DNA of 64,000 nucleotides. Source: Deltaproteobacteria bacterium (GTDB lineage: Bacteria; Desulfobacterota; Dissulfuribacteria; Dissulfuribacterales; QOAL01). Below are positions 4,991 through 22,666 of this stretch, one piece after another. The translations under genes and the position numbers were made by a program. The number at the start of each line of letters is the position of its first letter. Position 1 is the first letter of the stretch. The notes beneath the pieces are model-generated. The model saw nothing but the letters and a program-made list of their open reading frames with translations, ran no database searches and had not been told where the DNA came from. The stretch lies in NCBI GenBank assembly GCA_026995935.1, contig JALWNK010000018.1, forward strand, positions 1,245 to 65,244, in the 5' to 3' direction.

Positions 4991-5472
4991 CGGTGGATTT
5001 CCGGGTAGGCTTTGGATATGACGTTCACCGCCTGGTCCCTGGCAGAAGGCTCATCCTTGGCGGCGTTGAAATAGAGCATACCCTGGGGCTTCTTGGCCAT
5101 TCGGACGCAGATGTGCTTCTTCATTCCATTTGTGATGCCATCCTTGGGGCAGCAGGTCTTGGAGATATTGGTAACCACTTCCCTGACACGGATGAGAAGT
5201 TCAAGGGCATCTCTTCCATGCTTCTCCTAAAAGAGGTGGCGAAAAAGGCCCTTGAGGCTGGATTTTATATAAACAACGTGGATGCAACCGTTGTTGCTCA
5301 GGCCCCAAGGCTTTCCCCTTTCATGGAAAAGATGAGGGAAAATGTGGCCTCATGCATTGGAACGGATAAAAACCGCGTGAATATCAAGGCAACCACCACC
5401 GAGGGGCTTGGATTTACTGGGGAAAAGCAGGGAATTGCAAGCTACTGCGTGGCAACTGTTGTCTCCATTTAG
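4966..5472 (+). CDS. ispF: 2-C-methyl-D-erythritol 2,4-cyclodiphosphate synthase
   Basis: Motifs GFGYDVHRL and GHSDADVLLHSICDAILGA. GTG at 4993, just after the ispD stop, is a plausible alternative start. Confidence 0.9.
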   Translation: MHQRGEVLTVDFRVGFGYDVHRLVPGRRLILGGVEIEHTLGLLGHSDADVLLHSICDAILGAAGLGDIGNHFPDTDEKFKGISSMLLLKEVAKKALEAGFYINNVDATVVAQAPRLSPFMEKMRENVASCIGTDKNRVNIKATTTEGLGFTGEKQGIASYCVATVVSI

Positions 5473-18143: not shown

Positions 18144-18347
18144 GTTCTTTCTTTTGCTCGTCCAAAAGAAAGAACCAAAGAAAACGACGCCCCGATGCCG
18201 CTTGTTTCCTGCGCGTGGAAGCACCAGGCCCTGGCGGGCTGAAAGGGCCATCCTGGCCGTCAGCCCGTGGCGGCGTCCATGCCGCCACCCCTTCGGGGCC
18301 TGACCGGGCCTGTCACTTCCATGCTCGGCGCGGTATAAGGGGGAAAA
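18144..18347 (-). repeat. structured GC-rich repeat family 1, copy A (full length, sense on minus strand)
   Basis: Aligns end-to-end with the reverse complement of 19747-19960. Terminal hairpin GTTCTTTCTTTTG-N6-CAAAAGAAAGAAC at 18144-18175; inner hairpin GTGGCGGC/GCCGCCAC at 18267-18288; long-range stem 18216-18231 / 18306-18321. Confidence 0.8.
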
Positions 18348-18638
18348 GTACGTCCTGCAAAGGGGCTACTGCATAAAAAACATGATTCAAGCAGGTTGCT
18401 CCCTCCAAATCCGGTGAATGTCCAAAAAAGACACCCAAACATTAGGACGTTAATATGCTTTCCCTATGGTACGCGGTTTGGATACGAGGCCTCGATCTTG
18501 TAATCGGAAGAGATTGGGAGTTTTTAGATACTGTCGAACTTTTTATCACTCAAAGAAGATGGAAATCATGACGCGAGGTTCTGAGGGGTTGGTAAAAAAT
18601 GGATTCTTCTCCCTAAATGTTGGCTGCCGGCATAAGGC

Positions 18639-19067
18639 TTATCGGACTATAGGAGTAAGCTGGTCATCGGAAATTGTCCATTTGTCGTTTGGCGGAACTT
18701 TAAAATAATCCGTACCCGACCCCAGACCGTCACAGGTTTCAATGCGAACGTCATAAAAACCCTGCGCTACATAGACTGTAATTGTCTTTCCGGAAAGAAG
18801 TTTCCGGGTATGAAACAGGGATTCCTGCAAAAGATTTTTCGTGGGAAGATGAAAGGAGCCCGAGATGGGGAACCACACACCGCAGATGTCATGGCTGCTC
18901 TTGTTGATGATGGCGACCGGTTGGGTCGGTTCGCCGGAATCCTTCTCTCCAAGCCAGAAAAGAAAGAGATACAGTACAATAAACAGTACAAATAAACCTA
19001 AAGTAACTCGAAAAAATTTCACAAATAACACAAAAATAAATCGAAAGATACTCTCTATGATATTCAT
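18639..19067 (-). CDS. hypothetical membrane-anchored protein
   Basis: 142-aa ORF with one strongly hydrophobic N-terminal segment (FIFVLFVKFF...LFIVLYLFLFWL) and a small soluble domain. No family recognised. Confidence 0.4.
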   Translation of the reverse strand: MNIIESIFRFIFVLFVKFFRVTLGLFVLFIVLYLFLFWLGEKDSGEPTQPVAIINKSSHDICGVWFPISGSFHLPTKNLLQESLFHTRKLLSGKTITVYVAQGFYDVRIETCDGLGSGTDYFKVPPNDKWTISDDQLTPIVR

Positions 19068-19114
19068 AAACCCTCCTTGCGTATACTTTGTCTATCCCGA
19101 TGGTGATGAAAGAG

Positions 19115-19318
19115 TTACTTATGAATGAGCATGCCGATCCAGCCCATGACCATGCCTACAAGCGACGGCACCACCTGAACGATGGACCGAACATTCTCAG
19201 GCTTGACCTCCAGGATCAGATAAACAGCGTTGGTAACGACTAAAATGAAACCCAACGCTATCAGAATGAGGTCAAGATTTCTACGCACCATGCTCAAGCC
19301 TCCAGATTGTTCAGGCAA
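19115..19318 (-). CDS. hypothetical small two-TM membrane protein
   Basis: 67-aa ORF with two hydrophobic helices (LILIALGFILVVTNAVYLIL and VVPSLVGMVMGWIGMLI). Confidence 0.35.
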   Translation of the reverse strand: MPEQSGGLSMVRRNLDLILIALGFILVVTNAVYLILEVKPENVRSIVQVVPSLVGMVMGWIGMLIHK

Positions 19319-19386
19319 TTCATGTACCCGGCATTTCTGCGCGCAGATTCACCTGCCAGATGTACAAAATTAGAAATCTCTTATCC

Positions 19387-19680
19387 CTATTCTCCCAAAA
19401 ACAGGTGACTGTTACTCACTAGGACTTTGCGGAGAAGAGGACCAGCCCCTGCTTCATACGATAAAGCTACTAGCATTTTTTCGTCATATTTAAGGAAATG
19501 GCGCAGGATGATCGGAATACTGATGATATATTGGAGGTGAGAGACAGGATACAAGATTTCTTCCTTCAATTGTATGCCGAACCAGGCAACTATTTTGTTA
19601 TAGCATGAGGGGTAGAACCATCGCCCTCTGCATGAAAAGGCTGAAGGATATTCATGGCGGCAGTCCGAAAAAGGTCTCAT
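19387..19680 (-). pseudogene. IS91/ISCR-family (Y2) transposase N-terminal fragment
   Basis: CRHEYPSAFSCRGRWFYPSCYNK...VSHLQYIISIPIILRHFLKYD matches the zinc-binding/N-terminal region of IS91-family transposases (pattern C-x-H-x5-FSCK-x-R-x-CPSC ... SIP-x-x-LR). The catalytic domain is absent. Confidence 0.65.
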
Positions 19681-19746
19681 AAGTAGTTTCCCTGGGAATT
19701 TTTGAGAAGTGGTAAGAATTTTTTTTGGGGTTGCGTAATGAGGATG

Positions 19747-19960
19747 TTTTTAATCCCCCTTTTGCCGCGCCGAGCACGAAAGTCTTGGAGCCCAAAAAGG
19801 CCCCGAAGGGGTGGCGGGATGGATACCGCCACCGCCCATTGGGCCATGGATGGCCCCTTTGGGCGGCCGGGCTCCAAGACTTTCGCGCACAGGAATCAAG
19901 CGGCAACGGGGCGCCCTTTTCTTTGGTTCGTTTCTTTTGGGCGAACAAAAGAAATGAACA
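19747..19960 (+). repeat. structured GC-rich repeat family 1, copy B (full length)
   Basis: Perfect 17-bp long-range stem 19777-19793 / 19869-19885. Nested hairpins 19810-19833 and 19841-19856. Terminal hairpin 19926-19959. Confidence 0.8.
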
Positions 19961-20191
19961 TTACTTGATCTTTACGGTTCCAAACAGTTCGGACAATGCT
20001 CATTCCCACAGTGATGACTGGCAAAGGACCATCTATATAGATACCTTGGGTTTCGGAGCCACATATCTCCTACAACAGAAGAAGGCCTTTATGGAATCAG
20101 GGAAAAATGTGTCAAAGATTCTTTTGATTGGTATGATCATGTCAAAGGTGCTATGAATAAGTAAGTGAATCCTAAATTAATGGAGGTGGAT

Positions 20192-21873: not shown

Positions 21874-21948
21874 CGCGCAGGAGTCAAGCGGCAACGGGGC
21901 GCCCTTTTCTTTGGTTCGTTTCTTTTGGGCGAACAAAAGAAATGAACA
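21874..21948 (+). repeat. structured repeat family 1, copy C (3' 75 nt only)
   Basis: 66-nt core TCAAGCGGCAACGGGGCGCCCTTTTCTTTGGTTCGTTTCTTTTGGGCGAACAAAAGAAATGAACA is identical to 19895-19960. It abuts the tatC stop codon (21950-21952). Confidence 0.85.
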
Positions 21949-21949
21949 C

Positions 21950-22666
21950 CTACTTGTTTGTGAAGCCAGATGACAAAAACGCCCCTATTTCATAGATGAT
22001 CACAAAGGGCAGGAAGATGAGAAGCTGTGAAAAGATATCAGAGGGCACAAGTACTGCTGCCACAAGAAAAAGCACAATGTAGGCGGCCTTTCGGTGTTTC
22101 TTGAAATAGTTCCTTGGAACCAGCCCAACCCTTGCAGCCCCAGCCATGACAAAGGGCATCTCAAAGATGAGGCCAAATAGAAATATGGCCTTGAGAGTAA
22201 AGACAAGGTAGTTTTGCAGCCTGGGTAAGGCCTGGAGGTTTGTGGAGGCATAGCCAAGGCTTAGAGATAATATCACTGGCAAAATGACCCAGTAGCCAAA
22301 AACCGCCCCGAAAACAAAGAGAATGCCTCCTGTCAAAATGAGCCTTCTTAAGGAGCGTTTTTCATTCTCATAAAGGGCTGGAAGCAGGAAACGCCAGGCC
22401 TGATAGACAAAAAATGGAGCTGTCACCACCACTGCCGCCCAGAAGGCCACCTTGAGGTGCGCCATGAAGCCTTCCAGAAGGGCAGTAAAGACCATTGTGC
22501 TTCCAGAAGGAAGGCTTTGCTTTACAGGCTGAAAAAGAAAGGAGATTAGAAAGTCAGAGACCGCGTAGGCAAGACCAAAGGAGATACAAAATACAATGAC
22601 ACTCTTTATGAGCCTTTTTCTAAGCTCAGCAAGGTGGTCCTGGAGGGTGTAGGCCTCATTCACCAT
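21950..22666 (-). CDS. tatC: twin-arginine translocase subunit TatC
   Basis: 238 aa, six hydrophobic segments, N-terminal HLAELRKRLIKS typical of TatC, adjacent to a tatA/B-type gene. Confidence 0.9.
   Translation of the reverse strand: MVNEAYTLQDHLAELRKRLIKSVIVFCISFGLAYAVSDFLISFLFQPVKQSLPSGSTMVFTALLEGFMAHLKVAFWAAVVVTAPFFVYQAWRFLLPALYENEKRSLRRLILTGGILFVFGAVFGYWVILPVILSLSLGYASTNLQALPRLQNYLVFTLKAIFLFGLIFEMPFVMAGAARVGLVPRNYFKKHRKAAYIVLFLVAAVLVPSDIFSQLLIFLPFVIIYEIGAFLSSGFTNK

Follow-up and report, generated by a model that had tools for sequence, protein, structure and literature searches.

The closest described relative of the element treated here is TwoAYGGAY, an orphan RNA motif reported by Weinberg et al. 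in 2010 (PMC2864571), which has remained without an assigned function since. According to the supplement of that study its closing stem, P1, is "often very large" (PMC2864571), and binding of CsrA has been put forward for it by Gardner and Eldai as a proposal (PMC4333381). Its published host range comprises Clostridia, Gammaproteobacteria and the human gut. Here we analysed a 64,000-nt stretch (contig JALWNK010000018.1; in the following simply 'the window') of a Deltaproteobacteria metagenome-assembled genome (MAG), in which two units, A and B, stand back-to-back. Together A and B, each about 205-230 nt long, form the arms of a single copy, old and decayed, of a dispersed repeat. From sequence and predicted fold, the core of these units is a distant, sub-threshold variant of TwoAYGGAY; it is followed by a 57-nt terminal module, and this module as well as the doublet arrangement lie outside the published description of the motif. 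TwoAYGGAY relatives thus appear here as outward doublets with a conserved 3' module and as dispersed, seemingly recombinogenic repeats. We judge it an even question whether the element is both recombinogenic or mobile and transcribed outward, as a decayed structured repeat resembling miniature inverted-repeat transposable elements (MITEs) and REPINs.

Two back-to-back units with a TwoAYGGAY-like core

Read on the minus strand, A aligns end to end with B on the plus strand at a mean column identity of 82%. An inverted-repeat search returned four inverted blocks between the two that are 74-91% complementary, and a 20-nt core word was found only in A and B (chance expectation 0.00 occurrences). 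The inverted pair described in the initial annotation of this DNA is therefore real; its limits had to be moved, since the true outer ends are 18144 and 19959 and the similarity runs inwards about 20 nt past the limit given there. The third copy mentioned in that annotation also exists, merely as the 3' 74 nt of a unit. This copy C is a 5'-truncated solo unit ending 2 nt short of the stop codon of tatC (21950-22666, minus strand), a convergent gene.

A single scan of species-representative genomes, in which the 3' part of the element served as query, located full copies in three MAGs named "Deltaproteobacteria bacterium", so that the search for further copies proposed initially yielded both A-type and B-type units. 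Loci outside the window are cited by L numbers. The A-type copies in L004 and L006 are 98.5% and 98.4% identical to A and have unrelated flanks, and the three B-type copies in L003 and L005 are 91-94% identical to B. Seven full units and one truncated unit were seen across four genomes. Similarity between genomes is confined to the element: one orthologous site common to L003 and L005 excepted, the flanks resemble neither the window nor each other. BLAST searches of plasmids with B and with L078 gave no match.

In the case of B, the long stem pairs 19774-19793 with 19869-19888 (20 nt, 95% complementary in the inverted-repeat search), the nested hairpins are GGTGGCGG/CCGCCACC at 19810-19833 and GGGCCA-TGGA-TGGCCC at 19841-19856, and the terminal hairpin joins 19926-19939 and 19946-19959 by 14 bp, all at coordinates named earlier. 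Folding energies were -117.6 kcal/mol for B (z = -8.2 against dinucleotide shuffles) and -104.3 kcal/mol for A (z = -5.5), and 0 of 200 shuffles folded as well as A or B. The compensatory stem changes noted by eye between A and B were recovered by RNAalifold: for six copies, 13 of the 70 predicted pairs were changed on both sides between A-type and B-type, and for ten units from seven loci 29 of the 41 predicted pairs were compensated. Altogether, selection of the element as a single strand is supported by these compensatory changes. A peptide-coding explanation was rejected, as its ATG lacks conservation and frame-breaking indels separate A from B.

The initial annotation could not assign the element to any known RNA family. 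This did not hold. At relaxed thresholds B matched the Rfam TwoAYGGAY model (RF01731) over its full length (model positions 1-168 of 168) and A matched it partially (positions 49-108), both with scores (Table 1) below the gathering score of 43 bits, and the 3' module recurs in TwoAYGGAY members, accepted or close to the threshold, from Aeromonas and Psychromonas. Several features of the motif are recognizable. Both adjacent B loops read AUGGAU, the long P1 stem closing both hairpins is present in B and compensated in A, and GCCAUGGAUGGC in the second hairpin agrees fully with the Rfam consensus. In the L005 copies loop 1 reads ACGAU, a variant that also occurs in gut TwoAYGGAY members. Between P1 and the outer stem P0 lies a conserved GCGCAGGA motif, unpaired or weakly paired in the predicted folds, so that the GGA sites of each unit consist of the two loops and this largely unpaired motif.

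The sister units point in the same direction. Within Rfam clan CL00106, L121 matched TwoAYGGAY with 35.1 bits and L077 matched RsmW with 28.7 bits, and a unit of Aeromonas caviae reached 41.5 bits for TwoAYGGAY (cutoff 43, E = 7e-4), its module beginning 47 nt past the match. The Psychromonas ingrahamii members of Weinberg's own TwoAYGGAY alignment run on into CUUUUGGUUAC-UUUUCUCUUG-loop-AGAGAAAAGUAAC, the U-tract and hairpin extension found here, and two Psychromonas units are arranged (-)/(+) with about 2.5 kb between them. Because these sister units, the Aeromonas caviae unit and the Psychromonas sequences concur, the link to TwoAYGGAY is more than a marginal score. L003 was absent among the TwoAYGGAY matches with E <= 1 in a larger search. 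In contrast to the published motif, the window unit has an extra GAAG hairpin and lacks the 3' internal-loop segment of the model, and its host, a Deltaproteobacteria MAG, falls outside the published range.

The units can also be compared with the Csr/Rsm sponge small RNAs (sRNAs; CsrB, RsmX/Y/Z/W; CL00106), with which they share GGA motifs placed in hairpin loops and once in a stretch predicted to be single-stranded, a length of about 200 nt, tandem or multi-copy occurrence in some genomes and the sub-threshold RsmW and TwoAYGGAY matches of the sister units. They differ in having only 2-3 GGA sites per unit and no canonical terminator at the window copies, and their copies are dispersed, truncated and gene-disrupting; protein binding is putative.

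Table 1. Coordinates of the units, their parts and neighbouring features; positions refer to the window unless a locus is given
Feature	Position	Strand	Description	Evidence
Unit A (A-type)	18144-18361	minus	5' leader TTGCAGGACGT..CCCCC, TwoAYGGAY-like core and terminal module; points left, outward	alignments
Two GGA-loop hairpins of A	18235-18287	minus	loops AUGGAC and A-GGAU (one base deleted)	TwoAYGGAY, 21.8 bits
Terminal module of A	18144-18196	minus	X (CGUCG), U-tract UUUUCUUU, GGUUC, UUUCUUUU, loop GGACGAG, CAAAAGAAA, GAAC	covariance model, 64.7 bits, E = 1.3e-15
Unit B (B-type)	19731-19959	plus	leader, core and module; points right, outward	alignments, folding
TwoAYGGAY-like core of B	19763-19899	plus	predicted three-way junction with P0/P1, small GAAG hairpin and two AUGGAU-loop hairpins	RF01731, 33.3 bits, E = 0.015
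Terminal module of B	19905-19959	plus	predicted pseudoknot with triplex-compatible mirror repeat	covariance model, 77.3 bits
Copy C	21874-21947	plus	5'-truncated unit (CGCGCAGGAG..module), 3' 74 nt only	module covariance model, 77.1 bits
Two small predicted membrane open reading frames	18639-19067 (142 aa), 19115-19318 (67 aa)	minus	between the arms	no Pfam family
IS91-family transposase remnant	19387-19745	minus	zinc-binding domain only	PF14319, weak match
Patatin-like phospholipase remnant	19965-20156	plus	last ~65 codons; begins 5 nt past the outer end of B	
Module ends at convergent stop codons	L003, L004, L005, L008, L026, L031, L058, L059, L066, L094, L105, L107; window 21947-21950; L135 2551-2558			
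IS1182-type transposase loci	L025, L038, L044, L100, L108, L125 (e.g. L044 1941-3489)		divergent from unit	

The 57-nt terminal module

The terminal module includes the A/T-rich terminal hairpin of the initial annotation, which is present as described; it was treated there as minor, yet no other part of the element turned out to be as conserved or as widespread. When metagenomes were scanned with TTTTCTTTGGTTC[N]TTTCTTTTGG, at least 120 loci were located in soil, peat, sediment, marine and other samples, and the module is nearly sequence-invariant across these loci and across phyla. It also occurs in cultured Proteobacteria, namely Pasteurella, Aeromonas, Burkholderia, Ralstonia and Psychromonas; E. 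coli genomes searched with the doublet of P. multocida gave no match. Among 2.9 million viral contigs the class I module (see below) matched twice and class II not at all, therefore the module is no phage feature. At gathering thresholds no Rfam family was found at the module or the cores upstream of it in the window and 15 related loci, nor did a full-text literature search retrieve the module sequence.

Upstream of the module stand many unrelated core families. TwoAYGGAY-type cores are found in the window, L079, L124, L077, L076 and L013/L121, and others keep the same 5' GCCGAGCA and 3' GCGCAGGGAAC frame around a "UGUUUGAGC...GCGAGUU" core. The largest module family has a different core of about 100 nt (GGCGCGAGGGCAAACCCGGAAAUGG...CAUUUCCGG), seen at L008 7507-7605 (-) and about 33 further loci that include L015, L024, L026, L030 and L038; its long-range stems covary, the region upstream is AT-rich, a terminator follows downstream, and there is no Rfam match. 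The module hence follows at least two core types besides TwoAYGGAY.

To describe the fold of the module, an alignment of 77 distinct modules was used. The 5 nt before the first U-tract (columns 8-12) are predicted to pair with the hairpin loop (columns 35-39), with CG, UA and GC pairs interchanging between modules. None of 500 shuffles reached the covariation score of this pairing, and the signal collapsed when the partners were slid by 1-3 columns. A G.U pair stands at the N:N' position in 38 of the 77 modules, and a U.G pair at the first pseudoknot position (columns 12:35) in 19. This covariation shows the module to be an H-type pseudoknot. Two other readings of the module were discarded: a Shine-Dalgarno sequence plus AUG, as there are variants without GGAGG or AUG, and an intrinsic terminator of the convergent gene, as the antisense strand has no U-run.

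A second partial copy of loop, A-tract and GAAC (e.g. TGGCAAGCAAAAAATGAAC), without the U-tracts, was observed 8-12 nt downstream of many modules. Such partial copies, seen at L015 630-660, L020, L029, L115 and L119, may provide a competing pairing partner.

Beyond the pseudoknot, the sequence of the module follows the logic expected of a triple helix. U-tract 1 (UUUUCUUU) mirrors the pyrimidine arm of the hairpin (UUUCUUUU), which makes it an exact parallel Hoogsteen complement to the purine arm (AAAAGAAA). The triplex register would begin at the junction with the pseudoknot helix, U13-U20 being aligned with A43-A50 in the 77 modules. Variants change all three strands in a coordinated manner: class II modules read U3CU4 / U4CU3 / A3GA4 (L009, L054, L096, L124, L134, L135, L136), L015 carries a U5CU3 / U3CU5 / A5GA3 variant (the ends at L024, L066 and L092 have the same U3CU5/A5GA3 hairpin or a near variant), and L063, L081, L085 and L098 are all-U / all-A. 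Three Psychromonas variants also fit such a change, and the changes amount to about 6-7 independent events. Counted by run length, the mirror rule was kept by 12 of 12 modules with class I or II arms outside the search pattern (7 class II, 5 class-I-type), modules with symmetric UUUCUUU arms being uninformative. Thus the module possibly contains a major-groove triple helix of U.A-U and C+.G-C triples, as far as can be read from these sequences.

It is important to add a point against this triplex. The base of an extended hairpin also covaries (GGUUC:GAAC, GUUAC:GUAAC, CCUAC:GUAGG, GUGAC:GUCAC, GCAUAC:GUAUG), and this hairpin is incompatible with a triplex that folds back, as five bp would have to be bridged by a single nucleotide. 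At most, then, the triplex represents one of two conformers, and extended hairpin and triplex are probably alternatives.

Described major-groove RNA triplexes (ENE/MALAT1, telomerase, SAM-II, preQ1-II) resemble the predicted one in their combination of one A-rich with two U-rich strands, in a single C+.G-C position, in a third strand parallel to the purine strand and, by the predicted stacking on a short GC helix, in an H-type pseudoknot junction. In the case of ENE/MALAT1 the 3'-end position is a further likeness, which suggests end protection. In contrast to these, the module is bacterial, 57 nt long, conserved in sequence and known from sequence alone, and its turn GGUUC is able to pair instead with the 3' GAAC into the extended hairpin. 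The bacterial passages of a 2026 review on RNA triple helices deal with riboswitches and group II introns and contain no such module (PMC13541005).

Outward doublets and the surrounding DNA

With the covariance model of the module, second, more diverged modules could be found. At more than 25 loci of several families a second module lies in opposite orientation, in every case with the minus-strand module to the left of the plus-strand one, i.e. outward. By a cruder pattern detector 61 of 149 modules had an outward partner, with a spacing peak at 250-480 nt; inward partners were counted for 23 of 156 modules, many of them being one hairpin detected on both strands, and false positives of this detector, e.g. 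at window positions 5207 and 45362, were unconfirmed by the covariance model. Outward doublets of 250-480 nt are the usual form of the family. In Pasteurella multocida, for instance, a 422-nt doublet sits inside the dapF-yigA-xerC cluster with its right end about 6 nt from the dapF stop codon, and in L124 two TwoAYGGAY-type units stand back-to-back about 60 nt apart. The arms of many doublets differ in type (class I with class II, family 0 with Z).

Long doublets hold one or two unrelated accessory genes: Mrr in L005, DUF6680 in L019 and DUF2971 in L127. The L005 case is a second outward inverted pair with a different interior of 2.5 kb, encoding an Mrr-type endonuclease and a membrane open reading frame (ORF); L003 and L005 have the outer junction in common and differ in their interiors. 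As to the window, the membrane ORFs between A and B recur with 99.9% nucleotide identity on an independent metagenome contig (L001), where the same genes are called. With arms 18% diverged, an interior of an IS91 fragment and two small ORFs, and no convincing promoter, the window copy looks inactive.

Units in the same orientation also form tandem arrays, with three copies at a period of about 218 nt in L101 (12933-13424) and two at 227 nt in L012 (506-789); L019 (282-3240) has four units at spacings of about 330-860 nt plus one inverted copy. HicB-type antitoxin genes were seen beside an element arm (L003 5523-5738) and beside an IS91-family gene (L133 3788-3907), which fits variable accessory regions.

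In the related MAG GCA_027027825.1 (L128 2523-3548) an intact patatin gene of 341 aa lies directly upstream of a DUF2092 orthologue (83% identical). In the window, homology to this gene begins at 19968 by blastn, and by tblastn residues 273-322 match 19965-20105 (E = 2.6e-14). As the patatin gene is truncated at the end of B, the terminus of B is a breakpoint inside a gene. The other half of the gene is absent from the window, therefore this is not a clean pair of filled and empty sites. A clean empty site for copy C was sought via L128 and dismissed, as L128 diverges after the upstream gene and gives no information. It was also observed that a spurious ORF of 143 aa (19725-20156) joins the patatin remnant in frame with sequence of the element.

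The family thus behaves like a MITE/REPIN-type repeat: it is multi-copy with unrelated flanks and sharp ends, and one gene is truncated here. Like repetitive extragenic palindromic (REP) sequences, REPINs and MITE repeats (REPIN-RAYT, Correia, ERIC), the units are short, non-coding and structured; inverted doublets are common and often lie just past gene 3' ends, and there is no internal transposase. They differ from REP/REPINs in their much larger size (about 205 nt), in outward arms that are often not mutually complementary and in ends conserved across phyla rather than species-specific, and from these repeats and MITEs alike in that neither a target-site duplication nor a cognate enzyme was found.

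Between the arms lies the transposase fragment noted in the initial annotation. It is real, though weak: the ORF at 19387-19680 scored 18.1 bits against PF14319 (cutoff 26.3) and shares 72% identity with the N-terminus of a metagenomic IS91-family gene (P0001), itself fragmented. About 110-120 residues out of roughly 300+ are left, and both ends are cut off. The tetranucleotide GAAC/GTTC is the target of IS91, and the element terminus is GAAC/GTTC; with the zinc-domain fragment inside, the units could be imagined as the ori and ter ends of an IS91-family rolling-circle element. We nevertheless reject this reading as extremely improbable. The search for full-length elements with an intact transposase, suggested at the outset, led to three loci with intact IS91 relatives (L131, L132, L133), and these were not flanked by the module, none lying within 4 kb (best 12.3 bits, E = 0.29). 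Intact relatives of the transposase, 54-66% identical to the L007 copy, thus lack the module, more than 25 doublets lack an IS91 gene, the missing N-terminus of the fragment would extend into B, and long inverted repeats are not typical of IS91. Therefore the IS91 fragment is cargo, and the pair does not functionally bracket an IS91 element. For annotation this means that the 1.8-kb segment is no IS91; it consists of a decayed repeat that holds junk cargo, and a patatin pseudogene adjoins it.

A transposase of IS1182 type (recognized by eye, 515-aa sequence) was found about 190 nt upstream of units of the largest family, divergently oriented, at six loci. It was considered as cognate enzyme and dropped, as the insertion sequence is not bounded by modules; it is therefore probably a neighbouring insertion.

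In 12 of 46 cases with a convergent gene, drawn from several element families (Table 1), the GAAC end and the stop codon are 2-10 nt apart. The short flank between the GAAC end and the convergent stop often reads A-N(1-3)-YTA, and a target preference and a stop codon supplied by the element are not told apart by this spacing. HEARO and IS605-orfB are Rfam families that were once orphan motifs and were later recognized as omega RNAs, and in some Cas12 guide RNAs a pseudoknot or triplex adjoins the guide. With their outward orientation, their sharp 3' boundary and the nearby convergent stops, the units could likewise be scaffolds of omega-RNA type that take their guide from the flanking DNA, the predicted pseudoknot and triplex being akin to those of some type V CRISPR or TnpB guide RNAs. 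We find this very improbable, given that no TnpB, IscB or other nuclease gene lies beside any of the at least 120 loci, that the scaffold stands at both ends, unlike in IS200/IS605 elements, and that in the largest family terminators soon follow the module.

A proposed combination of outward transcription and mobility

Hints of transcription come from related loci. In the P. multocida doublet, ATGACA-16-CATAAT (10 of 12 matches) is the sole sigma-70-like site of the spacer and ends about 6 nt before the 5' boundary of the right unit; a weaker promoter-like site is similarly placed in L008. In the largest module family a canonical intrinsic terminator hairpin follows 15-30 nt downstream of the module. 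In Burkholderia cepacia (NZ_CP023519.1, aceF-lpdA spacer; L136 2535-2646) the Rfam family RF02421, Bp1_Cand684_SIPHT, matched with 118.8 bits, starting within the purine arm of a solo module of class II. Bp1_Cand684 is an sRNA candidate validated by reverse-transcription PCR, which we assume was not strand-specific, and may represent the downstream part of the same repeat.

These hints could equally be taken to mean that the units are resident sponge RNA genes of Csr/Rsm type and nothing else, a divergent pair around a shared promoter region for which rearrangements are incidental. The GGA/AYGGAY loops, the sub-threshold matches to three members of clan CL00106, the rightly placed promoter-like site of P. 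multocida, the downstream terminators of the largest family, the tandem arrays reminiscent of rsmX (L101, L012, L019) and the CsrA binding proposed for TwoAYGGAY (PMC4333381) all agree with such genes. We regard this reading as unlikely, since it does not account for the end of B inside the patatin gene, the 5'-truncated solo modules (copy C, the left end of L015, L136), the 98%-identical A-type copies in unrelated contexts or the accessory cargo between arms, and a near-invariant 57-nt end across phyla and cores would be unusual for vertically inherited sRNA genes.

The opposite restriction, to DNA, is similarly improbable. Here the units would be terminal inverted repeats of a transposon or MITE whose fold is recognized in the single-stranded transferred strand by an HUH-type or other enzyme acting in trans, RNA being irrelevant; RAYTs have been proposed to recognize REP/REPINs in like manner. 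At both ends the structured strand runs 5'->3' to the terminus and the element stops exactly at the hairpin base, with conserved ends and variable interiors; the missing target-site duplication is expected of HUH or recombinase mechanisms, and an adjacent transposase is lacking for REPINs as well. On the other side, no candidate enzyme was found, the GGA loops, promoter-like site and terminators are left unexplained, and the many doublets with differing arm types are therefore not simple terminal inverted repeats.

The initial annotation had listed a structured non-coding RNA and the ends of a decayed mobile element as separate candidates. Both are viable, and the reading we prefer, an element at once mobile and transcribed outward, combines them. 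In it, the units would be active in single-stranded form, namely as the strand whose 5'->3' direction leads to each terminus, and each arm would most likely be transcribed outward from the central spacer. The outward transcript would be a stable RNA with GGA loops, to which a CsrA/RsmA-like protein could bind, and the 3' end of the transcript would be closed by the pseudoknot and the U.A-U / C+.G-C triple helix, giving protection from 3' exonucleases. The same folded terminus may serve as cis site for copying by an enzyme supplied in trans.

Several results weigh against this combined reading. No direct repeats that would mark a target-site duplication were found at 25 doublet ends. All-against-all clustering of 1,161 neighbouring ORFs gave no shared neighbour protein family, the clusters comprising only element-overlapping ORFs, housekeeping genes and the IS1182-type transposase beside one subfamily; with no recurrent neighbouring protein, the case for mobility is therefore one of context alone. 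Rfam at gathering thresholds returned nothing at the element in the window and the 15 related loci, leaving the TwoAYGGAY score sub-threshold, and in the L005 copies GGA is missing from the loop of the first hairpin. The 64-kb window contains no csrA, and no convincing promoter or terminator flanking A or B was found in it.

The strand is a further point of this kind. The G.U pairs from which a strand asymmetry of A had initially been read are there, P1 on the minus strand having U.G and G.U pairs and one A.G mismatch, but the whole-unit folding energy disagrees: the antisense strand is 3.7-4.9 kcal/mol lower than the sense strand in A and in B. Consequently, A and B by themselves do not reveal the strand, and the functional strand, 5'->3' towards the terminus, is assigned because of the family-wide G.U pairs in the terminal module.

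We propose, tentatively and with more doubt than confidence, that the 57-nt module is an undescribed, phylum-spanning triplex pseudoknot that caps the 3' ends of a mobile superfamily of outward small RNAs including TwoAYGGAY. If so, it would be a bacterial counterpart of the ENE/MALAT1 3'-end triplex, and TwoAYGGAY RNAs would be borne by mobile elements instead of being ordinary sRNA genes. The triplex, if true, would be unprecedented in bacterial non-coding elements as a widespread triple helix of the 3' end, and mobility, if true, would define a new class of structured repeat. The module itself is compact, widespread and apparently unannotated, and it is present in cultured species in which it can be tested (Pasteurella multocida, Aeromonas caviae, Burkholderia cepacia, Psychromonas ingrahamii).

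As a minor observation, L121 1217-1563 (+), about 850 nt downstream of the unit at this locus, gave a sub-threshold match to the cspA thermoregulator (41 bits, cutoff 78, E = 1.3e-7), which is probably the leader of a cold-shock gene unrelated to the element.

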